64,000 nt of DNA from Escherichia phage P-GXEC-L2P5. The DNA is taken from sequence record PQ843332.1; one strand, 5' to 3'. Of this stretch, positions 12,429 to 63,384 are shown one piece after another. The position numbers and the translations under genes are program-made. The notes beneath the pieces are model-generated. The model was not told the DNA's origin. It saw only the letters and a program-made list of their open reading frames with translations, and made no database searches. The number at the start of each line of letters is the position of its first letter. Within the stretch, counting starts at the first letter, position 1.

Positions 12429-13890
12429 TGCGTAACTATGCGGCAGAACACCGCGCACTGGAACGCGCGATCGCAAAGCGTAACCGACCGCCACGCCCGA
12501 CACGCGTTGCGCAGGCCGTCCGCCTTTACCAGCCAGATTGCCTTCCGCACCAGGTCGAACTGCTGCGTGACACGAAGACTAAAATCCTCGGCCTGTGTTC
12601 CGGCTTCGGTGGTGGGAAGTCGTGGGTCGCAGCCCGTAAGGTAATCCAGCTTCTGACACTTAACCCCGGTCATGATGGCATCGTAACAGAACCGACGATT
12701 CCCCTCCTGGTTAAAATCATGTATCCGGAATTGGAAAAGGCATTCGACGAGGCGGGCTTCCGGTGGAAGTTCAATAAGCAGGACAAGATCTATAACGTGC
12801 TTGTGAAAGGCAAATGGACCCGCGTTATCTGTGAGTCAATGGAGAACTATACCCGCCTGATCGGGGTTAATGCCGCGTGGATTGTTGCCGACGAGTTCGA
12901 TACCACGAAGCAAGACGTCGCGCTGGCGGCATATCACAAATTGCTCGGTCGTCTGCGTGCTGGCTTCGTCCGCCAGTTCGTCATCGTGTCAACGCCTGAA
13001 GGCTACCGGGCGATGTATCAAATTTTCGAAGTGGAGAAGGATAGCCAGAAGCGTTTGATCCGGGCGAAGACCACCGATAACCACCACTTACCGGCAGACT
13101 TTATCGACACGCTGCGCAGCCAATACCCGGCTAACCTGATTGATGCGTACTTGAACGGCCTGTTTGTCAACCTTACGTCGGGCGCGGTGTACAAGATGTT
13201 CAACCGGGAGGAGAACGCCAGCACCGAAGAAGTGCAGCCGGAAGACACGCTGATTATCGGCATGGACTTTAACGTCACGAAGATGGCGGCGGTCGTGTAC
13301 GTCAGACGGCAGCGCATCACCGAAAACAAGGAGTTCCGCGACGAGATCCACGCAGTGGATGAATTTGTGGACCTGTTTGATACCCCGGCTATGATTGAGG
13401 CGATCGAGGAGCGCTACCCCGATCATTGTGCTGCCGGTCGTGTTGTCGTTTACCCGGATAGCAGCGGCAAGTCTCGCAAGACTGTTAACGCATCGTCGTC
13501 AGATATCGCACAACTGGAAGACGCGGGCTTCGAGGTGGAATACGACAGTGTTAACCCACCTGTGAAAGACCGATTGATCGCGATGAATACTATGATGTGC
13601 AACTCGAAGGGTGTGCGCCAGTATTTGTTAACCCGCCTGTGAAAGACCGATTGATTGCGATGAATACGATGATGTGCAACTCGAAGGGTGTGCGCCAGTA
13701 TTTTGTCAACCTGGATAAATGCCCTACACTAGCGAAATGTCTGGAACAGCAGGTTTACGACCTGAAGAAAGGCGAGCCGGATAAAACCGCCGGTGTGGAC
13801 CACATGAACGATGCCGCGGGCTATCCAATTGCGCACCTGTTCCCAGTGATTCGCCCAATCGCCGTTGTTCCAACTGTAGACTTCTACTAA
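12428..13890 (+). CDS. terminase large subunit (ATPase plus nuclease); 3' part frame-broken by duplication near 13560..13680
   Basis: Walker A GFGGGKS, Walker B IVADEFD, C-terminal nuclease region VDHMNDAAGYP. Confidence 0.85.
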
Positions 13891-30247: not shown

Positions 30248-30855
30248 CCACATTTAAATTATACGGCGTCTTAGGGCGTCGTTTTGGTAAAGTGCACAAG
30301 CTGGATTGCTTCACCCCGGGCGAAGGTATCACAGGCCTATGCGTGAAGCTGCCTGGCTTACAGGACTTTCTAATGTCGGCCCACCTGGAAAATATTATGT
30401 TCAAGGTGCGCAAAGGCAATCACACAATGACCGGATACGACGAGTTAGGAGAGTTCCACGGCGACCGCGTAGTTACCATCGCACCGGTTATGACCGGCGC
30501 AAAACGCGGACTAGGCCAATTACTGGCGGGCGTAGCCATCGTGGTGGCGTCGTTCTACACCGGCGGGCTTGCTACTGCCGCTTTCGGAGCTTCCGCCGCG
30601 ACCGCTGCCGCTATCGGTACGGCAACGTTTTCGTTCGGGATGTCGATGGCGCTGGGTGGCGTTATGCAATTGCTGTCACCGCAACCGAAAGGATTGCAGA
30701 CACGGCAGGACGTGGATAACAAGGCGTCTTATGCGTTCGGCGGACCGGTAAACACGACCGCGCAAGGTACGGCACTTGGTGTATTATGGGGCGAGCGTGA
30801 GATCGGCGGCGCTATTATTTCCGCCGGAATCGTAACCGAGGACTTGAACGAATGA
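30244..30855 (+). CDS. tail assembly protein I-like
   Basis: ATGA overlap with the K stop; glycine/alanine-rich hydrophobic middle; TGA/ATG overlap with J. Confidence 0.6.
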   Translation: MTTFKLYGVLGRRFGKVHKLDCFTPGEGITGLCVKLPGLQDFLMSAHLENIMFKVRKGNHTMTGYDELGEFHGDRVVTIAPVMTGAKRGLGQLLAGVAIVVASFYTGGLATAAFGASAATAAAIGTATFSFGMSMALGGVMQLLSPQPKGLQTRQDVDNKASYAFGGPVNTTAQGTALGVLWGEREIGGAIISAGIVTEDLNE

Positions 30856-30928
30856 CGATTATCTACGACGTCACAGGCCATAAAGGCGGCGGCGGCAAAG
30901 CCGGAATCGTAACCGAGGACTTGAACGA

Positions 30929-33900
30929 ATGACGATTATCTACGACGTCACAGGCCATAAAGGCGGCGGCGGCAAACAGCACACCCCACAGGAGACGCCG
31001 GACAGCCTGCATTCGCTGGCTAAAATCCGCATCTTGCTCGCACTGGGCGAAGGTGAGTTCGAAGGCATTACCGACCCTAACGAATTACGGCAGCGCGTAT
31101 ACCTGGACGGAACACCGATCCAGAACGCCGACCTGTCAGAAAACTTCCCCGGCGCGCGCGTGGAGTTCCGCCCAGGCACACAGCACCAGGACGTGATCCA
31201 CGGATTTTCAGCGGTGGAAAGTGAGCAATCCGTAGGCGTAAAACTGGAAAACGGCACGCCGTGGGTGCGCCAGATTAACGACACCAGTCTTGACGCCGTG
31301 CGCATTCGAATCGGCATTCCGGCCCTGTACACCAACGAAGACAACGGCGACCTGGTGGGCGGGCGCATCGACTACAAAATCGTTGTGTATACGGACAACG
31401 CTGATCCGCGTGAGTTTACCTTCGCTGCCGTTGGTAAAACAATGTCGCTGTACGAGCGCGACCACCGCATCGAGTTACCGCCGAACGTGAATACCGGCTG
31501 GCGCGTGGAAGTTCACCGCACAACGGCAGATTCCACATCGGCGAAAGTGGTGAACGATATTCAGGTACAGTCCATCACTGAGATTATTGACGCCCGCCTG
31601 CGTTACCCGCTAACCGCGCTGTTGTTTGTGGAGTTCGACGCCAAAGCGTTCCAGAACATCCCGCGCGTGTCCATTAAGTGCAAAGGTCGCAAAGTTCTAA
31701 TACCGAACAACTACGACCCGATCAATCATACCTATGCCGGGTACTGGGACGGCACGTTTAAACGCGCATGGACGGATAACCCTGCGTGGCACTGGTACGA
31801 TATTTGTATTACTGAGCGCTTCGGCCTCGGTCGGTTAAACGCGCATGGACGGATAACCCTGCGTGGCACTGGTATGATATTTGTATTACTGAGCGCTTCG
31901 GCCTCGGTCGCCGGATCAAGCCGCAAATGCTAAACAGATATGCGCTCTACCAGATTGCGAAGCGCTGCGATCAACTGGTCAGCGACGGCAACGGCGGGCA
32001 GGAAATCCGATTTAAGAATGATATGTACATCCAGTCGCAGACCGACGCCTGGACCGTGCTTAAGGATTTAGCCGCCATCTTTGCCGGTATGACCTGGTGG
32101 GGCAACCAGATGTTGAATATTGTAAGCGATCAGCCGGTCGCAGCGGTATCGCACACTATCACCAACGCCTCGGTCATTGATGGTCGATTCGACTACGCGT
32201 CAGGGAGCCAGAAAACTCGGTATTCCACGTTCGCTGTAGCATACGGCAACCCGAAGAACCACTATGAAGATGCCATTGCTACGGGACAGCGTGTCGAACT
32301 GGTACGCCGCCATAAGATTAACCGTCTGGATATAACGGCGATCGGCTGTACGCGTGAGTCAGAAGCGCAACGCCGCGGGCACTGGGCGCTAATCTCCAAC
32401 CAGCTTGACCAGCAAGTTAGCTTTAAGGTTGGCATGGAGGGACTTTTCTTTATTCCGGGTAGTGTAGTCGCGATCGCCGATACAAACATTTCTGGCGGCT
32501 TCGAGACACGCGGCGGTCGCCTGTTGTCAGATCCTGGCACGCGGACTGTGCTGAACACAGACAGCGAAATCACGTTCCGCCCTGGGGATAAATTCCTGGT
32601 ACGCACCGATAGCGGTAATGTGGAGACTCGCGAGATTGCCAGCGTCAACGGCAACAAGGTTACGCTAAAAACCGCACTGGACGCCGACCCGATTCCTGAT
32701 CAGCCGTTTTGCGTCGATGGCAACGATATCCAGTTGCAGAAGTTCCGCATCACCGACCTGGAATATGACGACTCTACCAGCACTTTTTCAGTGCGCGGGA
32801 TCGAATACAACGATAGCAAATATGATGCCGTTGATAATGGCGCTCGCCTTGACCCAGGCATCTTTACGCAAGTTCCTGACGGCGTAATGAAGGGGCCGGA
32901 GTCCGTGACCATTACCCCGTCGCAGATTTCATCGCAAGGCCAGCTAATCACCAACGTGGATATTGTGTTCCCGCCGGTGAAGGATGCCGTTGTTTATGAG
33001 ATCCAGTGGCGACGTACCAGCTTGCAGAATATGGCGGTACAGTGGGGAAACGACTGGGTAAACATCCCCCGCACGGCATCGAACGGCGCGCACATCCCTA
33101 ACGTGTTCTCCGGTAACTACCAAGCGCGCGTCCGCGCGATCGGTATGGGCGAGATTTCATCCCCGTGGGTGTCGTCCGCTATCACGCCGGTGGAAGGTCG
33201 TCTCGGCGGTCTTAACGCGCCTATCATCACCAACGCGATTTCGGGCCTTCACCAAATTTTGTGGAAGTGGAACCACAACAACGCCGCGACGGATATTTCG
33301 TACACCGAGCTTGAAGTTCGCAAGACGGGTGAAACGGAATGGAAATTCCTAACCAACGTCCCATACCCGGGGTCGGAGTATGCGCAAACGTCGCTGGAGT
33401 TCGGCATCTATCAGCAGTTGCGCGCCCGTGTAGCGGATAAAATCGGCAACCTGTCGGACTGGTCGGCCCCGTTTGAAGGGCAGGTGAGCAGCAGTTGCGC
33501 GCCCGTGTCGCGGATAAAATCGGCAACCTGTCGGACTGGTCGGCCCCGTTTGAAGGGCAGGTGAGTGACAATGTTGACGAGTACATGAAGGGGCTGGACG
33601 ACGAGTTCTTGACTTCTGAGGACGGTAAACGCTTCCAGGAAGCGATCGACACCATGCCGCAAGGCATTTATGAGGCTATGCTCACCGACGCACAGCAATT
33701 GTTTAACGCCCGCGCCGAGTACAAGGGGATTTATGCAGAAATCTCGGTCGCGTATAACGTGGCGGCAGATGCCCACCAGGCGGTAGCGCAACTGGAAACG
33801 TTGATCGGTACTCGCCTTGACGATGCGGAAGCGGCAATCCACACGTTGCAGACCGCGCAAAGCACGCACGAGCAAGCGTTCGCCCAGTACCAACAAACTG

Positions 33901-34433
33901 TTGCCGCTAAGTTCGGTCAGCAGTCCGCCGCGATCGAGCAGAAGATGACGTCCTCGTTTAACCACTCCGGTGGTAGCGCCACATACAGCCTTAAGGCGGG
34001 TGTGACGTATAACGGTACTTACTATGATGCGGGTATGCAGCTTTCCGTTGTAACGTCGGGCAGCGCGGTTAAATCTCGTATCGCGTTCAAAGCCGACCAG
34101 TTCTACATCATGCACCCATCTAATGGGTCGCTTTCGTCCGCGTTCATCGTCGACGGAGGACAGGTGTACATCGACACGGCACGAATCAAGAACGCGTCCA
34201 TTAACTTCGCACAGATCACGGACACGCTGCGGTCTAATAACTTCGTTGCGGGGTCGTCAGGGTGGAACCTGCCTAAATCGGGTAACGCGGAATTGAACAA
34301 CGTAACGGTCCGCGGCAACCTGTACGCCACATCGGGTAACTTCGGGTTTTCTGGTGGGACCGTGACGATCGACAAGACAGGCGTAAACGTGCCGTTACCT
34401 GGCGGGGGGAGGGTGAAAGTCGGGACGTGGTAA
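30929..34433 (+). CDS. central tail fiber / host specificity protein J-like; frame broken by duplications
   Basis: About 1150 aa; lambda J-like N-terminal region; last gene of the tail tip module. Confidence 0.8.
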
Positions 34434-34436
34434 ATG

Positions 34437-34460
34437 CGAAGGGGCCATCCGGCCCCTTTT
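34437..34460 (+). terminator. rho-independent terminator between convergent genes
   Basis: GGGGCC-atcc-GGCCCC followed by TTTT. Confidence 0.7.
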
Positions 34461-35434
34461 CAATACATATTCGGGATGACGAGTAGCGGGGTGGGTACGG
34501 CAATATTTTTACCTGGCATCTGGAATTGCTGCCGTGAGTAGTTGCCGATGACGCGGTTTTTAGCGACGCGCACATTATTACCCGCCATGCGTATTCCGTT
34601 CATGCGGACGTGGTTATAGCCCCCGTTGTTCTGAATCAGCGCGCCGGTGTATGAAAGCTGGATCAGGCTGTTTCCTATATTCTGGTCGCCCGTGCCGATG
34701 TTAATCGTGCGGTCATATACGAACGGCTTGTTCACCGTCGAGAACGTGACCTGATTCTGGTTATTTGTCATAGTGATCCCGGCCCCTGGCGTGGGTGGTG
34801 TATTGTTGAATATGACAAGGTCCATGTCCACCGAAGCCGCCACATCGTCGATGCCACCATAGGCCGCGTTGCGGACGATAATACTGCCACCATCGAAGCC
34901 TACTGATACGTTGCCGTCATCCCAGCGGGCGAACGGGACACCGCTAACGGGCAAGGCCATACTACCGTTGACGCGTACTCGCTGTGCGTATCGGCAGGTC
35001 ATTAGCTTAGACACGTTGGATATGGCGGTGAAGTCCGTCGAGTTCTCCACCAGTAAGCCCGCGTTGCGTGAACCAACCGGCAGCACTTCCATTATGACGC
35101 CAGCCCATTGTGGTAAGCCAGAGTACGCGCCATACGCATCCTCCCCGCGCAGGGTGATACCACTATTCCCGTTGCGGGTAACAGACGTAACGTAAAACGG
35201 GTCGGGAATTACCAGGGTCTGGTCGAATACCTCAATCACTTCTACCGGGCGAGTGAGCGCGACGACGACCTGCGACCCCTCCGTAAGCGGGGTGTTAATG
35301 GTTAGCGTCTTGTTGGACTGTGCCCGCTGGTTAAAGCTGGTGCAGTATGCTGGCGCGCGAAGCCCTGCGGTGATCTCCATGCGCGGTCTTCCGTCGTTGT
35401 AGTCGATAAGTATTCCAGCACCCATTATTACCAC
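34460..35434 (-). CDS. hypothetical protein (324 aa, Asn/Gly/Thr-rich), possible fiber-like or receptor-binding protein
   Basis: ORF convergent with J, downstream of the lipoprotein gene; no catalytic motif. Confidence 0.45.
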   Translation of the reverse strand: MVIMGAGILIDYNDGRPRMEITAGLRAPAYCTSFNQRAQSNKTLTINTPLTEGSQVVVALTRPVEVIEVFDQTLVIPDPFYVTSVTRNGNSGITLRGEDAYGAYSGLPQWAGVIMEVLPVGSRNAGLLVENSTDFTAISNVSKLMTCRYAQRVRVNGSMALPVSGVPFARWDDGNVSVGFDGGSIIVRNAAYGGIDDVAASVDMDLVIFNNTPPTPGAGITMTNNQNQVTFSTVNKPFVYDRTINIGTGDQNIGNSLIQLSYTGALIQNNGGYNHVRMNGIRMAGNNVRVAKNRVIGNYSRQQFQMPGKNIAVPTPLLVIPNMY

Positions 35435-35649
35435 TCCCGTGATTTAACTGATACTGTGCCTGAGAAATTGCCGTCGCTATCTGAAGACAGCCCAGTGAAT
35501 CGCATGTCCACATCTCCTGCCGGGACTTTTTGCCCATCAACGTAGCGCAACATGCAGCTACCGTACGCAACCGTAATGCACTCGCCGTTGTTGCGTTCTA
35601 CGGCGCAACCGGATAAAAGAACCGCACAAATCATAATTAAAGTTTTCAT
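35428..35649 (-). CDS. small lipoprotein, candidate superinfection-exclusion factor (Llp/Cor-like)
   Basis: Signal peptide MKTLIMICAVLLSGC with lipobox LSGC, four further Cys, GGGGA RBS. Confidence 0.5.
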   Translation of the reverse strand: MKTLIMICAVLLSGCAVERNNGECITVAYGSCMLRYVDGQKVPAGDVDMRFTGLSSDSDGNFSGTVSVKSREW

Positions 35650-35729
35650 GGTATCATCCCCTATATTTGGTTGAGTTTTAGTATTACACCGCTCAACCAG
35701 GATTGCAACCAATTTAAGAGGATTTAGCT

Positions 35730-37508
35730 ATGGCAGCGGGTACGCTATCCGTAACGAACAATAGCAAGGCTGTAGTAGGGGTCGGCACAACGTTTACCGC
35801 GTTTAAAGCGGGCGACTTCTTAACGCTGGTGGTAGGACAAGTCCCATACACCGTGGCAATCGCGTCCATTGAAAGCGCAACCGCGCTCACGCTGGTACTG
35901 CCGTTCGACGGCCCAACGGCAACCGGCCTTGCGTGGGATGGCGTTAAGCGCGATACCATGTCGCTGGCAACGATGGGCGTTACCGTACAGGCCCAAAAAG
36001 CATTGCGCTTGATGATTGCAGATGAAAACAACTGGCGTGCAATCTTCGGCGATGCTGAAGAAATCACAGTCACGCTCCCGAACGGGCAAGTTATGCAGGG
36101 TATGTCGTGGGGCTACCTGTCGTCTTTGCTGAAGGAAGTAGACCCCGTTGAGATGCGCAACCTGCAACAACAAGCCGCCGCATCGGAAGCAGCCGCGCAA
36201 GGATTCCGTAACGAGGCGGAAGGCTTCAAGAACGACGCCAACACCATCAAGACGCAGACCAGCCAACTTAAGGCAGATACGCAGGCTATCAAGGACCAAA
36301 CGAATCAGATCAAGACTGACACTGGCGTTATTCGTGATGAAGCCAATACCGCGAAGGAGGACGCGCAATCTGCCCGCACTGCCGCGCAAGGATTTCGCAA
36401 TGAGGCTGAACAATTCGCTAATAGTGTTAACCCGGAAAACCTACTTGCGAAGGCCAACAACTTAAGTGATGTTGCGGATGTGGCTGTGGCGCGCGAAAAC
36501 ATTGGCGTAGACCGCCTAACGCAAAACATAACCAGCGGCGAAACACAAATCAGGACTGCGGCGAAGAATAAATGGATCTTCGTTAAGGAAAATGGCGACT
36601 GGGGCGGGTGGGATAATGCCAACAATAAAGCCATGCCGCTGCCGATTGCATTCGGTGGTACGGGGCGCGGCGATAACGTCGCCGAGTTCCGCCAATTCAA
36701 ATCAAACGGCGACACCCAAGATGGGTTAATCATTACGCAGAACGGGTCTGGATTTGGTGGTGTATGCTGGGGGGATTCCGCCAATAAAGTACGCTGGCGC
36801 ATGGGGATTAACGACGCCGCGGGTAATTTTAAGTTGCACTCATATGACGCGTCGGGCGCGTACCGCGATACCTTTATGGAGATCTCTGGATCGGGGATAA
36901 GCGGCATGGTGTGTCATCGAGATATCATGGTCCGCCCAACAGAGACAGTTCCAGTGTTGTCTTTCGTCCTAAACAACGGAAAAGCTACCGTCCCGGCTGG
37001 TAACGTCCGCACGATGTGGGATACGGTTAACATCAATAGTAATATAATCTATAAATATTTTGAGAAGGGAGACGGCACTGGCTTCACAGTCAACTGGCCC
37101 TCATCTGGTGGTGTTATTGCCCTCCAGGGTACATCAGGAAGGGACTTTAAGAAAGATATTACCGACGCGGACGTTACAGAAGCGGTTGCACGCATTGAAC
37201 AAATGCGCATGGTGCGCTACGTGTATAAGGACGATGTGCAGGAGCGCGTCCGCTTCGGCATCATTGCCGAGGAAGCAGAAGAGATTGCGCCTCAATACAT
37301 CAAACACCGTGAGGAGACGTACGATGTGGAGGTGGACCCCGAGACTAACGCCATCGTCGGGGGTAAGACGCGCGACCGTCCGTCGGTAGACGTTAACCCT
37401 ATCGTGATGGACTTGATGGGGTGCGCACAATATGCGATCGCTGAGTGTAAACGCCTGGCGGCGGAAGTGGAGGATTTGAAAGCCGAGATCGCGGCGTTGA
37501 AGAAATAA
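35730..37508 (+). CDS. side tail fiber with C-terminal S74 intramolecular chaperone domain
   Basis: Central coiled-coil repeats (AQGFRNEAE twice); C-terminal RFGIIAEEAEEIAPQY resembles the S74 chaperone signature. Confidence 0.75.
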   Translation: MAAGTLSVTNNSKAVVGVGTTFTAFKAGDFLTLVVGQVPYTVAIASIESATALTLVLPFDGPTATGLAWDGVKRDTMSLATMGVTVQAQKALRLMIADENNWRAIFGDAEEITVTLPNGQVMQGMSWGYLSSLLKEVDPVEMRNLQQQAAASEAAAQGFRNEAEGFKNDANTIKTQTSQLKADTQAIKDQTNQIKTDTGVIRDEANTAKEDAQSARTAAQGFRNEAEQFANSVNPENLLAKANNLSDVADVAVARENIGVDRLTQNITSGETQIRTAAKNKWIFVKENGDWGGWDNANNKAMPLPIAFGGTGRGDNVAEFRQFKSNGDTQDGLIITQNGSGFGGVCWGDSANKVRWRMGINDAAGNFKLHSYDASGAYRDTFMEISGSGISGMVCHRDIMVRPTETVPVLSFVLNNGKATVPAGNVRTMWDTVNINSNIIYKYFEKGDGTGFTVNWPSSGGVIALQGTSGRDFKKDITDADVTEAVARIEQMRMVRYVYKDDVQERVRFGIIAEEAEEIAPQYIKHREETYDVEVDPETNAIVGGKTRDRPSVDVNPIVMDLMGCAQYAIAECKRLAAEVEDLKAEIAALKK

Positions 37509-37512
37509 ATAG

Positions 37513-37536
37513 AAGGGGCCATGCGGCCCCTTTTTT
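37513..37536 (+). terminator. rho-independent terminator between convergent genes
   Basis: GGGGCC-atgc-GGCCCC followed by TTTTTT. Confidence 0.8.
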
Positions 37537-38187
37537 AGTTTGAGTTTTCCCAGTCCATTTTGCGCCGCACCAGATGGCTTTCGTAATATTCCTTGCCCTC
37601 AACTTCCACTAAGGGCCAATCGTTAACAATCACGTACGGTTCCGCAATATCCTCAATCACGCCGTGCGCGCTTTGCGGCCCTAACGACACGCCCACCAGG
37701 ATAACACCGGCAACACGACGGGCAAGATACTCACGAGCGCAGCGCGCCTCTACCAGTCCGCGACGGATGCCGCTGGTGGCCTTAACTTCGTAGGTCCATA
37801 CGGCATCGATCACATGCTCGCGGAAGTCGGGACCGGACTTCACCTTGCGCTTGCCGACCATGATGATATCGCCGCGACGGCATCGATCACATGCTCGCGG
37901 AAGTCGGGACCGGACTTCACCTTGCGCTTGCCGACCATGATGATATCGCCGCGGTCAATGGTATTGGCGCTAAACAGGCCGGTACGCATGAGCAAGCCTT
38001 GAGGAATACAACTGCGCCCTCCTGCCTGCCCTTCAAGATACATGCCTGCAAACATCTCGCCCAGCACACCGACCAGTCGGCTTTGCTTGCACGCGTCAGA
38101 CTTTAAGCGCCACTGGTCAAACTCGATGCTTGCTATCATTGCCGCCAGGTGGAATTGTTTACCGGATATTTCATATTCGCCGTACAT
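37535..38187 (-). CDS. hypothetical protein, possible PD-(D/E)XK-like nuclease; frame broken by duplication
   Basis: ORFs 37840..38187 and 37535..37861 are contiguous when collapsed; weak ID...EVK motif. Confidence 0.35.
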
Positions 38188-38229: not shown

Positions 38230-38947
38230 TTATTTCAGTGCGCCAGTCACCAGTGTTTTTTCCATGTTGCGGAAATCTTCCGGCGTCATGAGGATTTTCG
38301 ATCCGTCCTCGCCAGTGAGCACGACCATAGGCTGGACGTCCTGATCTGCGATGCCAAAATTAGCGGCTTTAACAGTCTTGCCCACAGATGAAGAAGGATG
38401 CCGCGTCCCGGCGGAGGCGATGGGCCGGCCTTTGAGGCTGTCGAATTGTGCTGCCGTTGTATCGATCTGAATCTCGTCATGTACGGTCATGTAAGACTCG
38501 CCCAGCAGGGCGGCATACCGAATTGTGCTGCCGTTGTATCGATCTGAATCTCGTCATGTACGGTCATGTAAGACTCGCCCAGCAGGGCGGCATACGCCAC
38601 CAGATCCACGATGTTATCTTCCTGGTGCTTACGGTGCTGGCGCACCAGCTTCAGGCAGATCAGGAAGGTCCAGGCTTCTTGCTCTGTAAGTTATCTTCCT
38701 GGTGCTTACGGTGCTGGCGCACCAGCTTCAGGCAGATCAGGAAGGTCCAGGCTTCTTGCTCGGACAGGTCGCGACCGGTAATCGCGTTAAACACGGCCGC
38801 GATTTGTTTAGCGCTGCGTTCTTCTTTCGCGTTGTCATAGCCGTTTTCTTTCCCGCGCTGTTCCATAGTGGTGGCGGCGTTTTTGCAGTATTCGTATGCT
38901 TTCACAGTATTACCCTTTTTAGTGAAGGGGCGGTATTGCCCCGACAC
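38230..38947 (-). CDS. hypothetical protein; frame broken by two duplications
   Basis: ORFs 38660..38947 and 38230..38490; GCAACCAA palindrome just upstream. Confidence 0.4.
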
Positions 38948-39816: not shown

Positions 39817-39882
39817 GGAGTTCTCCTTCGCTCATTATTTCAATTTGTGCGCTGCCGGTGGGCGGCGCTTCGTCAAAGATTA

Positions 39883-40436
39883 TCAATTGCTGGCACTTGT
39901 TATTGCTCGGCCCGTTTCAATTTGTGCGCTGCCGGTGGGCGGCGCTTCGTCAAAGATTATCAATTGCTGGCACTTGTTATTGCTCGGCCCGACTTCGCCG
40001 GTTACAGCATGTATGAATCGGATCCGCCAGTCCAGAAGAATTATCAGGTTTGCAGTCTTCCGGGCCAGCTTCGCCCACTTCGTCGACGTGTCCTGATTCA
40101 GTAGCATGACGGTCCGGCGTCCGTGCGCCGCGCACTCGACCCACGGCAGCGGATCGGAATACGGCGGGTTGCACCACTTCCACCCTTTCAACTCTGACCA
40201 GTCCGCATCGAGCGCGCTGTGCTCTGCCGTGAAGTAACGCGGTAGCAGGTGGTTGGCATCGCTCGCCGCCATGTCATAACGGAATCTGTACTTCCGGCGC
40301 AGCGGTTTAAATAAAGCTGGCGGCGTGCGCCAGCTATCTTTTTGCTCACTCTTCTGCATGATCGGTACTTCCGGCGCAGCGGTTTAAATAAAGCTGGCGG
40401 AGTGCGCCAGCTATCTTTTTGCTCACTCTTCTGCAT
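39883..40436 (-). CDS. DNA N6-adenine methyltransferase (phage Dam family); frame broken by duplications
   Basis: MQKSEQKDSWRTPPALF N-terminus, DMAAS, NPPY catalytic motif. Confidence 0.75.
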
Positions 40437-49867: not shown

Positions 49868-51367
49868 TGCTTAAGTCCTCGTCAGTAGCTACAGACCACG
49901 CAGGGCGCGGGTCGTCGATGGGTGCTAATACCGGTTTAGCTGGTGCGCGCGTGATTTTATCACACAGCTTCGCCCATACTTTCGGCTTCTCGTCCTTCAA
50001 TACCTTCTCGGCATCAGTAGGGCTGAGTAATGTTTCTTTGTACATCACATCGCGCTTGATCCGGGCCTTCGTGAAGATTTCAATCACTTCGCTTTCGTCC
50101 GCCCACTTGCGAATCCCTTCCTTACCTGCAACCATCTTGAGGCCCAGCGATTCGCCGTCGCCCGCCATCACAGCCTTGAATACCGCGGACTCGATAGCCT
50201 TGATGTGCTGGCGCATTGCGTCCAGGCCTTCATAAGCCTTGCGCAGTTCCGCGGCGGTCATAGCGCCGGGGGCCGCTTCTTTCTTGCCACGCTTCGCACG
50301 TCGTGCCGCTTTGCGGGCTTCGCGGGCCATATTGCGGTCGTGATTGGCGCATTCTTCCTCTGTCGCAATACTCACGTCGTCGCCCAGGTCTTCGTCTGTT
50401 GCCGTTGGTGGGGTCATCGTGCCGATTGCAGCCTTAGCGCGGGCGCTACACTGATCCGCAAATCTGCACCACTGACACGCATCAACGCTCGGTCGGAAGT
50501 CGGCGCGGGTGAGTCCCTTTTTTCCGCGGGAGTACGCTTCCAGGGCGGCGATAGCACGCTTGGACGCAAACTTAGCGAATATCTCCAGGGCTTCTACCGA
50601 AATATCCCACTCCGACGCCCCGCCGCAATACGGCTGGAAGATAACAAGGCGCACGGTTGTAATGTCGTACATAGTTTTCAGCTTGCGCAGCAAGCCCAGC
50701 GCATACAACATAAGCTGTTTGTTTTCTTTCGCCTCGACCTTATGCCGCCCCGTCTTCAGGTCGCCAACAATCAGCATGTACGTGCCGTCGGTCTTCTTCA
50801 TGACCATGACCATATCGGCAGTACCGAACGTCTTAACCCGGTTGCCGTCGATCTCGAAGCCTGAGTGAAGGACGCGGGTCAGATCGGCGCGCATCTCAAG
50901 CTGAACAAACTCCGCCACTTCGAGGAGCGGTCGCCAGTGGTCGATGTACGCGTCGCACTGTTTCACCATGTCGTCGTTGACCAATACGCCGCCTTTCGGT
51001 GCTTTAGGGTGTGCCTTTCGATGTACGCGTCGCACTGTTTCACCATGTCGTCGTTGACCAGTACGCCGCCTTTCGGTGCTTTCGGGTGGGCCTTTACCGG
51101 CCCCTTACCTTCGTTCTCTACGTAGCACCCTTTGTACGTCTTAGCGGTTATCAGCTTCTCCCCGGCAATGATGCGGTTTAGCACCACTTCAGATACGGTG
51201 TGCATACTCGTACCGTTAATCGCCGCTTGCCCGGATTCGTTCGGGATATCTTTTTCCACCACCAGGGCGGCGGGACACCCCATCCATTTTTTAGCACCGG
51301 ATGGGCCAAGTAATGAGTGTTCTGTATTGCTACCGGATTGCGTTTTACGTTTTGGTTTAATCGCCAT
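49860..51367 (-). CDS. unit 2: DUF2800-type nuclease; frame broken by duplication near 50950..51070
   Basis: ORFs 49860..51035 and 50963..51367 with the same motifs as 162..1746. Confidence 0.7.
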
Positions 51368-51443
51368 TATTCCACCCGTGTAAACTGGACAATTACATAT
51401 TTCACATTACCGGATTGCGTTTTACGTTTTGGTTTAATCGCCA

Positions 51444-51623
51444 TTATTCCACCCGTGTAAACTGGACAATTACATATTTCACATTCGCCAAGCCCGCTTT
51501 TTCGACACGGCTGCGCACTTCATGCTGCGCATCGGTCCAGCACATCGAGGCGTCCTTGTTAACAACAAGAAAAGAGAAATGGTCGTTTAATTCGTGGCAA
51601 GTTGCCAGCACGAAAAATTTCAT
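51444..51623 (-). CDS. unit 2: small hypothetical protein (diverged homolog of 1823..2002)
   Basis: Hand-translated MKFFVLATCHELNDH... Confidence 0.35.
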   Translation of the reverse strand: MKFFVLATCHELNDHFSFLVVNKDASMCWTDAQHEVRSRVEKAGLANVKYVIVQFTRVE

Positions 51624-61922: not shown

Positions 61923-63384
61923 TGCGTAACTATGCGGCAGAACACCGCGCACTGGAACGCGCGATCGCAAAGCGCAACCGACCACCACGCCCCACACGCG
62001 TTGCGCAGGCTGTGCGTCTTTACCAGCCAGATTGCCTTCCTCACCAGGTTGAACTACTGCGCGACACGAAGACTAAAATCCTCGGCCTGTGTTCCGGCTT
62101 CGGCGGTGGCAAGTCATGGGTTGCCGCACGTAAGGTCATCCAGCTTCTGACACTTAACCCTGGTTATGACGGCATCGTGACCGAACCGACTATTCCACTC
62201 CTGGTCAAAATCATGTACCCGGAACTGGAGAAGGCATTCGACGAGGCTGGCTTACGGTGGAAGTTCAATAAGCAGGACAAGATCTACAACGTGCTGGTGA
62301 AAGGCAAATGGACTCGCGTTATCTGTGAGTCAATGGAGAACTATACCCGCCTGATCGGGGTCAACGCCGCGTGGATTGTTGCCGACGAGTTCGACACCAC
62401 GAAACAAGACGTCGCAATGGCGGCATACCACAAATTGCTCGGTCGTCTGCGTGCGGGCTTCGTCCGCCAGTTTGTCATCGTGTCCACGCCGGAAGGCTAC
62501 CGGGCGATGTATCAAATATTCGAGGTGGAGAAGGGTAGCCAGAAGCGCCTGATCCGGGCGAAGACCACGGACAACCACCATTTACCGGCAGACTTTATCG
62601 ACACGCTGCGCAGTCAGTACCCGGCTAACCTGATTGATGCGTACCTGAACGGCCTGTTTGTTAACCTTACGTCGGGCGCGGTGTACAAGATGTTCAACCG
62701 CGAGGAGAACGCCAGCACCGAAGAAGTGCAGCCGGACGACACGCTGATTATCGGTATGGACTTTAACGTCACGAAAATGGCGGCGGTTGTGTATGTCAGA
62801 CGGCAGCGCATCACCGAGAACAAGGAGTTCCGCGACGAGATCCACGCAGTGGATGAATTTGTGGACCTGTTTGACACCCCGGCTATGATTGAGGCGATCG
62901 AGGAGCGCTACCCGGAACATTGTGCCGCCGGTAGGGTCGTCGTTTACCCGGATAGCAGCGGCAAATCCCGCAAGACGGTCAACGCGTCGTCGTCCGATAT
63001 CGCACAACTGGAAGACGCGGGCTTCGAGGTGGAGTATGACAGCGTTAACCCGCCTGTGAAAGACCGATTGATCGCGATGAATACGATGATGTGCAACTCG
63101 AAGGGCGTGCGCCAGTATTTGTTAACCCGCCTGTGAAAGACCGATTGATTGCGATGAATACGATGATGTGCAACTCGAAGGGCGTGCGCCAGTATTTTGT
63201 CAACCTGGATAAATGCCCTACACTAGCGAAATGTCTGGAACAGCAGGTTTACGACCTGAAGAAAGGCGAGCCGGATAAAACCGCCGGGGTGGACCACATG
63301 AACGATGCCGCGGGCTACCCTATTGCGCACTTGTTCCCTGTGATTCGTCCGATCGCCGTTGTTCCAACTGTAGACTTCTACTAA
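61922..63384 (+). CDS. unit 2: terminase large subunit; frame broken by duplication near 63050..63180
   Basis: Walker A GFGGGKS, Walker B IVADEFD. Confidence 0.85.

Follow-up and report, generated by a model that had tools for sequence, protein, structure and literature searches.

Between the gene for its J-like tail tip protein and that for its lateral tail fibre, Escherichia phage P-GXEC-L2P5 (sequence record PQ843332.1) carries a pair of genes on the minus strand, convergent with J (end 34433) and divergent from the tail fibre gene (start 35730), and the question that this locus raises is what such a pair contributes to the phage. The stretch of DNA that we analysed (64,000 nucleotides, hereafter the window) represents a Dhillonvirus genome, which over positions 34300-35800 is 95-98% identical in nucleotide sequence to phages slur05, SO-1 and Oekolampad (Bas18); 152 phage records match this stretch. 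An earlier note on this DNA had placed two minus-strand ORFs between J and the side tail fiber, where both are indeed present, and had likened the smaller one, a lipoprotein, to receptor-masking exclusion factors of the Llp/Cor type. We hold it to be very probable that the two genes form the host-recognition module of an Oekolampad-like Dhillonvirus, i.e., a receptor-binding protein (RBP) that binds LptD and a cognate exclusion lipoprotein, and nothing in the sequence contradicts this reading.

Layout of the locus and limits of the genes

The features of the locus are collected in Table 1. Mechanical ORF calling gives a 324-aa frame with a GTG start (34460..35434) and a 94-aa frame with a TTG start (35428..35712), and these were the limits adopted in the earlier note; the frames exist, but their real starts are likely to lie further inside. 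The larger gene probably begins with the ATG at 35425, which has GGGAG 9 nt upstream and lies only 2 nt past the TAA stop of the lipoprotein gene, and the lipoprotein gene probably begins with the ATG at 35649, which has AGGGGA 7 nt upstream. The resulting lengths of 321 and 73 aa agree with those annotated in Oekolampad, EK99P-1, Bas84, 22664B1 and slur05. Chance ORFs are ruled out by matches to DUF6453 (E=2.3e-121) and PF24052 (E=1.5e-21), each above the Pfam gathering score. The stop of the RBP gene is 26 nt from the convergent stop of J, and the order in which J is followed by a convergent RBP gene with the lipoprotein gene upstream of it is common to Rtp and the five phages just named.

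Table 1. Features of the gene pair and its surroundings, in positions of the window
Feature	Positions	Strand	Basis or remarks
J-like tail tip protein, C-terminal part	33495..34433	+	Phage_Tail_Tip PF09327, E=5.2e-40; phrog_31 'central tail fiber J'
GC-rich hairpin between the J and RBP stops	34438..34459		Folding
Predicted receptor-binding protein gene, 321 aa + stop	34460..35425	-	Oekolampad/Rtp44 family, Pfam DUF6453
Predicted superinfection-exclusion lipoprotein gene, 73 aa + stop	35428..35649	-	Rtp45/SE_Oeko family, Pfam PF24052
Signal peptide and lipobox, codons 1-15, MKTLIMICAVLLSG followed by C	35605..35649	-	Predicted lipidated Cys15, Ala at +2
Divergent intergenic region, 80 bp, with candidate promoter and RBS	35650..35729	-	Conservation
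Lateral (side) tail fibre gene, 592 aa	35730..37508	+	phrog_1980, E=1.5e-137; Peptidase_S74 intramolecular chaperone domain, E=3.6e-11

The window also contains 63 artefactual 77-bp duplications that stem from assembly joins. Two artefactual duplications of this length split J into three ORFs; the complete gene occupies 30929-34433.

The larger protein

The 321-aa protein scores 405 bits against Pfam DUF6453 (PF20051; cut-off 25), with residues 4-297 aligned on positions 1-290 of the 291 in the profile, and phmmer matches it over residues 1-321 to PDB chain 9RPT_C, a 'Tail fiber protein', at E=8e-208. It is 97% identical over 321/321 residues to Oekolampad gp25 (RBP_Oeko), from which it differs by nine substitutions (A26, E49, E95, E127, S139, Q147, A188, A215 and G246), and it is 33% identical to Rtp44 over its full length (residues 1-321) and 42.6% identical to OzMSK (tblastn). 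By a published criterion, an RBP of a siphophage can be assigned to the LptD-targeting family when, across roughly its full length, its identity to an RBP from a phage whose LptD dependence has been assigned experimentally is above 30% (bioRxiv 10.64898/2026.04.02.716166), and the identities to Oekolampad, Rtp44 and OzMSK all exceed this value. The homology supports the view that the protein is the predicted LptD-targeting terminal RBP of the Oekolampad/Rtp44 family, and it bears out the earlier suggestion of a receptor-binding or fiber-like protein, the near-identical RBP_Oeko having been solved with LptDE. The description of the protein as rich in Asn, Gly and Thr was a fair one (N 9.7%, G 10.3%, T 7.5%), and valine is as frequent as glycine (V 10.3%).

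A cryo-EM structure shows RBP_Oeko on the LptDE translocon (PDB 9RPT; Dunbar 2025, PMC12685063); the protein binds open LptDE through an interface of ~1,700 A2, and point mutants of LptD abolish both its binding and infection (PMC12685063). That LptD is the receptor of Oekolampad was identified from resistant mutants (PMC8594841, PMC12685063). In a published model a separate RBP docks on J (PMC8594841), and we propose by analogy that the J-like tail tip protein may serve as the docking site of the 321-aa RBP.

Existing database labels would make of the 321-aa protein something quite different, namely a membrane protein or a 'moron' unrelated to the virion: phrog_1265, which it matches, is labelled 'membrane protein; moron, auxiliary metabolic gene and host takeover', and the RefSeq product name is 'membrane protein' in slur05, EK99P-1 and Bas84. 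This label is, however, an automatic annotation without experiment, and the protein has neither a signal peptide nor a transmembrane-like segment, the highest mean Kyte-Doolittle hydropathy over 19 aa being 1.2. Such an origin is extremely improbable, and we rejected the 'membrane protein' identity on the strength of the hydropathy and of the solved structure.

The lipoprotein and its relation to Cor and Llp

The 73-aa protein matches Pfam PF24052 (Phage_lipoprotein) with 76.6 bits, where the cut-off is 27, its residues 3-73 aligning to positions 8-80 of the 80 in the profile, and phrog_4281 at E=3.9e-33. It differs from the exclusion protein of Oekolampad, gp26 (SE_Oeko; bas18_0026), by one substitution (D23E; 99% identity), and its E23 form is 100% identical to that at the gp24 locus of Sodalis phage SO-1 (tblastn). 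Identity to Rtp45 is ~35-36%, and phmmer matches the protein to PDB chain 9RPS_D at E=1.5e-8. These relationships support its assignment as a putative superinfection-exclusion lipoprotein of the Rtp45/SE_Oeko family.

The lipobox LSGC that the earlier note had reported occupies residues 12-15; an n-region (MKT) and a hydrophobic core (LIMICAVLL) precede it, and Ala stands at +2. The type II signal peptide was called by pattern match alone (regular expression [LVI][ASTVI][GAS]C), and residues 3-14 have a mean Kyte-Doolittle hydropathy of 2.4. Cys15 aligns with the lipid-anchor Cys20 of Rtp45. A 'cysteine-rich mature part', as previously described, is an overstatement, for the mature protein of 59 aa has three cysteines, the lipid-anchor Cys and two others. 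Cys24 and Cys32 align with the disulfide Cys30-Cys38 of Rtp45 and are invariant in 7/7 aligned sequences; the lipid-anchor Cys is conserved too, and R19, G22, G30, G39, P43, G45, D48, R50, G53, E72 and W73 are likewise invariant.

A lipoprotein of the same size class as Cor and Llp, destined for the outer membrane and encoded next to the tail-tip genes, might be taken for an inactivator of FhuA like those of T1, phi80, N15 and T5, encoded by a phage that is itself FhuA-dependent. FhuA dependence is known for some Dhillonviruses, and the lipoprotein does yield a weak match (E=0.0011) to phrog_1119, 'Cor superinfection exclusion protein'. That match is nevertheless limited to residues 1-30, i.e., the signal peptide; the BLASTP alignment to T1 Cor (17.7 bits, E=0.007) has most of its identical residues in the signal peptide and lipobox, and the alignment to T5 Llp, for which the query was 100% identical to T5 llp, covers only 15 residues of the signal peptide (2-16). 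A search of the PDB with the lipoprotein, at E up to 10, returned no Llp chain. The lipoprotein moreover passes the threshold of another family, PF24052, and is a homologue of Rtp45, which binds LptD; its neighbour belongs to an RBP family that is specific for LptD, not FhuA. We would give the FhuA reading almost no credence. Membership of the Cor and Llp families, which would call for homology of the mature lipoprotein to one or the other, was rejected. What stands of the Llp/Cor comparison is the receptor-masking role, by homology with Rtp45 and SE_Oeko; what falls is the family, since the likeness stops at the signal peptide and the true family is PF24052. The masked receptor is predicted from these homologies to be LptD, not FhuA.

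Neither protein has a meaningful match among the PADLOC anti-phage defence models or in NCBIfam, where matches to TraV and SteE, due to the lipoprotein signal, fall far below the cut-offs.

Intergenic signals

The spacer between the J and RBP stops can fold into a hairpin with a 9-bp stem (AAGGGGCC/GGCCCCTT core) and a 4-nt loop, with folding energies of -18.9 kcal/mol on the plus strand and -18.6 kcal/mol on the minus strand (z=-3.5 for each). It is likely to act as a bidirectional terminator; a consensus terminator scan did not call it because its T-run is shorter than 5.

On the other side of the pair, the 80-bp divergent region contains a candidate extended -10 promoter, with TTGCAA at 35708-35703, a 17-nt spacer, TG at 35688-35687 and AATACT at 35685-35680, followed by a ribosome binding site, GGGGA, at 35661-35657. 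The candidate agrees with consensus at 8/12 hexamer positions plus the TG. It scores below the threshold of the consensus scanner, which found no sigma-70 site upstream of the cassette above that threshold. Across six Dhillonviruses the region is 97% conserved, with invariant hexamers, compared with only 84-98% identity in the flanking coding sequence. We infer that the region carries a weak promoter for the cassette, and both genes may be co-transcribed from this promoter-like site.

A proposed mechanism of receptor recognition and masking

The following scheme is drawn by homology with the Oekolampad and Rtp proteins. Binding of the RBP to its receptor LptD would commit the phage to DNA injection. 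In the infected cell the 73-aa lipoprotein, as product of the first gene of a two-gene transcription unit, would be exported and then lipidated on Cys15, and the Ala at +2 would direct it to the inner leaflet of the outer membrane. Rtp45 has been solved in complex with LptDE (PDB 9RPS), on whose periplasmic side it sits (PMC12685063); its hairpin, pushed up the lumen, sterically displaces loop EL4 of LptD (PMC12685063). SE_Oeko could not be expressed, and Dunbar et al. assumed its binding mode from Rtp45 (PMC12685063). The window lipoprotein may, by the same analogy, bind LptD in the manner of Rtp45, i.e., to the periplasmic side of LptDE with a beta-hairpin pushed up the barrel lumen, where the hairpin would displace extracellular loop EL4 and so block RBP binding. 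Superinfection would be stopped as a result, and progeny virions would not be wasted on receptor in cell debris. An exclusion phenotype of the lipoprotein in living cells would be expected on these grounds.

One may ask whether a lipoprotein that binds LptDE in this way might serve mainly another end, such as protection from lysis debris only, modulation of LptDE or assistance to the RBP. Its place upstream of a late RBP gene would fit such a role, and the close spacing of the genes (2 nt here, a 1-nt overlap in Rtp) suggests co-expression with a structural gene, unlike T5 llp, which is annotated with a separate promoter. The papers that we consulted contain no assay of exclusion in living cells for either Rtp45 or SE_Oeko, and Dunbar et al. 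themselves count protection from cell fragments in the role of the exclusion protein (PMC12685063). Against this, EL4 in Rtp45-bound LptD takes up a conformation that clashes with the RBP, and from that clash alone one would predict that adsorption is blocked; debris protection and exclusion are two outcomes of one binding event, so that the proposal amounts to a refinement and not a true alternative. As an alternative it is very unlikely, and receptor masking that leads to exclusion is the reading that we retain.

Comparison with known systems

The closest counterpart of the cassette is bas18_0025/0026 of Oekolampad (Bas18), which has the same lengths (321 + 73 aa) and lies at the same place in the same orientation, with J on one side and the lateral tail fibre on the other; structures of its RBP with LptDE are available as PDB 9RPT, 9RPW and 9RQI. 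The two phages differ in the lateral tail fibre gene, which has 1,821 nt in Oekolampad and encodes 592 aa in the window. Rtp, of the Drexlerviridae and thus of another phage family, has members of both protein families in the same operon layout downstream of J. The lipid-anchor Cys and the Cys30-Cys38 pair are kept between the two lipoproteins, but the central and C-terminal parts have diverged, e.g., DSDGNFSGTVSV in the window against SSGSVRDY in Rtp45, and the details of the contact with LptD may therefore differ.

T5 offers a parallel in function, for its tail-tip RBP, pb5, is likewise accompanied by a small, periplasm-facing outer-membrane lipoprotein, Llp, which binds the receptor of pb5 and keeps pb5 from attaching to it. 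The receptor there is FhuA, not LptD, the homology does not extend past the signal peptide, and a promoter is annotated at llp. Cor of T1, phi80 and N15 is likewise annotated as a superinfection-exclusion protein; it is a small lipoprotein whose gene lies close to those of the tail tip. Cor blocks FhuA-dependent phages. In T1, cor comes after two plus-strand genes (ST32 and ST31) downstream of J and not after a DUF6453 gene. The modes of action differ as well, as Llp acts on FhuA by long-range allostery whereas Rtp45 physically displaces a loop of LptD (PMC12685063).

Cassettes of an RBP and an exclusion lipoprotein are already known (published 2021-2025), and the significance of the pair in this window is one of annotation only. 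Genes that appear in public records as 'hypothetical protein' or 'membrane protein / moron' can be named as those for an LptD-specific receptor-binding protein and its cognate superinfection-exclusion lipoprotein, with LptD as the predicted terminal receptor. LptD is essential and conserved, which makes the module of interest for phage steering and receptor engineering, a case that is already in print (PMC8594841, PMC12685063, PMC13035648).

Related genes in Kuravirus podoviruses

Podoviruses of the Kuravirus/Gordonclarkvirinae group (phiEco32, Bas88, Paul, ES17, NJ01 and others) have all three components as well, namely a Phage_Tail_Tip domain of the J type, a DUF6453 protein and a PF24052 lipoprotein. 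In the Kuravirus genomes the DUF6453 protein is encoded right after the Phage_Tail_Tip protein, and the lipoprotein gene is distant, among small hypothetical genes. In phiEco32 the Phage_Tail_Tip domain lies within the tail-needle protein phi32_20, and the DUF6453 gene is phi32_21, which by gene order would correspond to gp19 of SU10, a protein that is never mentioned in the SU10 structure paper. Current models recognise only O-antigen and LPS-core as receptors of Kuravirus podoviruses, and we found no report in the literature of LptD use by these phages. It is a tentative possibility, to which we give somewhat less than an even chance, that an LptD-binding protein has gone unrecognised at the tip of their needle and that LptD is their terminal receptor.

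Gene content and annotation of the cassette

The window is a Dhillonvirus genome. Its segment 34300-35800 has matches in 152 phage records, among them slur05 (97.7% identity), Sodalis phage SO-1 (95.8%) and Escherichia phage Oekolampad (Bas18; 95.1%). Two minus-strand ORFs occupy 34460-35712, transcribed, as the earlier note had it, against the tail operon between J and the side tail fiber. The 324 aa and the limit at 35712 cited there match the mechanical ORFs, but the ATG starts give 321 aa and 35649, and lengths of 321 and 73 aa are those annotated in Oekolampad, EK99P-1, Bas84, 22664B1 and slur05. Both ORFs are real genes, since each matches Pfam and PHROG families and the Pfam matches lie well over the curated cut-offs: DUF6453 (E=2.3e-121) and phrog_1265 (E=2.2e-122) for the 321-aa protein, PF24052 "Phage lipoprotein family" (E=1.5e-21) and phrog_4281 (E=3.9e-33) for the 73-aa protein. 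PADLOC and NCBIfam searches of the two proteins added nothing.

Features of the cassette, its surroundings and related records
Feature	Position	Orientation	Remarks
Larger mechanical ORF	34460..35434	-	324 aa, GTG start
Smaller mechanical ORF	35428..35712	-	94 aa, TTG start
321-aa protein, sensible start	ATG 35425	-	GGGAG upstream; 2 bases past lipoprotein TAA stop
73-aa protein, sensible start	ATG 35649	-	AGGGGA 7 bases upstream
J-like tail tip gene	ends 34433	convergent with cassette	last 312 residues = Pfam Phage_Tail_Tip, E=5e-40
Lateral tail fiber gene	35730-37508	divergent from cassette	phrog_1980, E=1.5e-137; Peptidase_S74 chaperone domain
GC-rich hairpin, 9-bp	34438-34459		between convergent J and RBP stop codons; from folding
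Inverted repeat	35669-35698		GGTTGAG, 16 nt, CTCAACC
J fragments	30929-31933, 31927-33564, 33495-34433		three ORFs
77-bp duplications, examples	30823-30976, 31755-31910, 33412-33565, 37800-37953, 38442-38595, 39838-39991		
phi32_20 (gp20), phiEco32 NC_010324.1	5476-6444		Phage_Tail_Tip domain, E=3.7e-27
phi32_21, phiEco32 NC_010324.1	6446-7477		next gene after phi32_20; full-length DUF6453, E=1.2e-23
Bas88_0091, Bas88 PQ850628.1	2474-2800		PF24052 lipoprotein, E=8.7e-36; LTGC lipobox, conserved cysteine pair

The LSGC lipobox that had been noticed is present at residues 12-15 of the 73-aa protein, behind a textbook type II signal (MKT, then the hydrophobic core LIMICAVLL) and followed by Ala at +2. 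The residue after the lipidated cysteine decides Lol-dependent sorting to the outer membrane, and because it is Ala here the lipoprotein is predicted to be sorted there. Its mature part of 59 aa holds three cysteines, so that "cysteine-rich" was a generous description, one of them being the lipid anchor. The 321-aa protein is composed of 10.3% Gly, 10.3% Val, 9.7% Asn and 7.5% Thr and has no hydrophobic segment; the "membrane protein / moron" label that it carries in PHROGs and RefSeq conflicts with both its hydropathy and the solved structure.

Relationship to characterized receptor-binding and exclusion proteins

The cassette is not new, being a near-identical copy of one that was characterized genetically in 2021 and structurally in 2025. 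The 321-aa protein is 97% identical to the Oekolampad receptor-binding protein (RBP) gp25 (312/321, zero gaps), aligns with PDB chain 9RPT_C from end to end (E=8e-208) and is 33% identical to Rtp44 of phage Rtp across residues 1-321. The lipoprotein is 99% identical to Oekolampad gp26 (SE_Oeko, bas18_0026; sequence confirmed in the supplement of PMC12685063), 100% identical to the gp24 locus of Sodalis phage SO-1 (tblastn) and 36% identical to Rtp45, which, complexed with LptDE and LptM, is PDB chain 9RPS_D (phmmer E=1.5e-8). In an alignment of seven family members, the lipid Cys and the two cysteines that correspond to Cys30 and Cys38 of Rtp45 are invariant, as are R19, G22, G30, G39, P43, G45, D48, R50, G53 and a C-terminal E-W.

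The observation in the earlier note is thus confirmed, and its reading of the pair as an exclusion lipoprotein with a receptor-binding protein is supported by these near-identical or homologous characterized proteins; the Llp/Cor-type families that it named have to be corrected, similarity to them being limited mostly to the signal peptide and lipobox, and the receptor is LptD, not FhuA. The match to phrog_1119 (Cor) covers residues 1-30 only (E=0.0011), the BLASTP alignment with T1 Cor (17.7 bits) falls mainly within the signal peptide and lipobox, and that with T5 Llp consists of 15 signal-peptide residues. Whereas T5 has a promoter annotated at llp, the lipoprotein gene in the window is apparently coupled to the RBP gene.

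Directly behind gpJ, small siphoviruses have allelic "RBP loci" that have been proposed to code for RBPs and cognate exclusion proteins, with each allele tracking one outer-membrane receptor; Oekolampad was among the phages for which resistant mutants mapped to lptD (Maffei et al., PMC8594841). A 2026 preprint (10.64898/2026.04.02.716166) confirms that the locus hosts four unrelated protein families, which go with FhuA, BtuB, LptD and YncD, respectively, and by its family criterion the 321-aa protein belongs with LptD. The Oekolampad RBP contacts mainly extracellular loops (EL) 3-5 and EL11 of LptD, and Y671N, D352Y and similar LptD point mutations abolish binding and infection (Dunbar et al., PMC12685063). 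The 321-aa RBP would accordingly be expected to bind LptDE and to depend on LptD, both shown for its 97%-identical relative, and it probably docks on the J tip domain.

Rtp45 sits on the periplasmic face of closed LptDE, near strands 5-8 and between LptE and LptM, and extends a partly beta-stranded hairpin up through the lumen, raising EL4 by as much as 20 A; the resulting LptD conformation clashes with the RBP, a steric mechanism in contrast to that of Llp, which acts on FhuA by long-range allostery (PMC12685063). By analogy with this 36%-identical protein, the 73-aa lipoprotein would bind LptDE from the periplasm as Rtp45 does, displace EL4 and presumably bring about exclusion in vivo. SE_Oeko could not be expressed, and its Rtp45-like binding was likewise deduced by the authors; that paper contains no plating assay that we could find for either SE_Oeko or Rtp45 (PMC12685063).

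Candidate transcription signals

The hairpin between the convergent stop codons (-18.9 and -18.6 kcal/mol on the two strands, z about -3.5) plausibly terminates both transcripts. Upstream of the lipoprotein gene, an 80-bp spacer is 97% conserved among six Dhillonviruses, its coding flanks being only 84-98% identical, and contains an invariant TTGCAA, 17-nt spacer and TG-T-AATACT, which we read as a candidate weak extended -10 promoter; it falls below the threshold of a consensus scanner. The two genes probably share one transcript, and because they are 2 nt apart here and overlap by 1 nt in Rtp, expression of the exclusion factor appears to be coupled with that of the RBP. Producing the two proteins together would fit a role in shielding progeny from receptor in debris no less well than one in early exclusion. 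The candidate -10 element lies inside the inverted repeat of the divergent intergenic region. One stem pair of this repeat has changed on both sides in Bas84 (T-A to C-G) and another is broken there, 22664B1 has mismatches, and the folding z is only -1.4 to -1.5, such that a functional role is uncertain.

Homologues in other phages

Distant homologues of the two proteins are encoded by Kuravirus/Gordonclarkvirinae podoviruses, in which all three elements recur: a Phage_Tail_Tip domain, a DUF6453 protein and a PF24052 lipoprotein. From gene order, phi32_20 would correspond to SU10 gp18 (tail needle) and phi32_21 to SU10 gp19, which goes unmentioned in the SU10 structure paper; Bas88_0091 is located well away from the tail genes, within a group of small hypothetical genes. 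The BASEL paper models Kuravirus-type podoviruses with O-antigen and LPS core receptors only, and among the papers searched we found no Kuravirus-LptD link, bar unrelated mentions inside that paper. LptD may serve these podoviruses as an unrecognized terminal receptor. Near-identical copies of the cassette are also filed under hosts in which a module for E. coli-type LptD is unexpected (Sodalis phage SO-1, Acinetobacter phage NJ01, Campylobacter phages A118 and A120); the recorded hosts may not be trustworthy, or enterobacteria may in fact have been used to grow the phages.

Assembly of the window

Across the window there are 63 tandem duplications, each of exactly 77 bp in two copies (95-100% identity; median spacing ~720 bp), which break J into three ORFs and introduce further spurious frameshifts. 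When one copy of each is removed, J becomes an uninterrupted 1,116-aa frame, as long as the annotation of J in slur05 implies, and the window comes round to its own sequence about every 45.6-46.1 kb. It exceeds a Dhillonvirus genome (~45 kb) and wraps on itself (1689-1843 with 51331-51485; 13549-13711 with 63044-63205) in two passes that are similar and not identical, which suggests a strain mix or a path through graph bubbles. The duplications are an artefact, not biology, and the window looks like k=77 assembly-graph segments joined with overlaps untrimmed, over ~1.3 turns of a ~45-kb genome. The cassette is intact, since 33566-37799 is free of 77-bp duplications.
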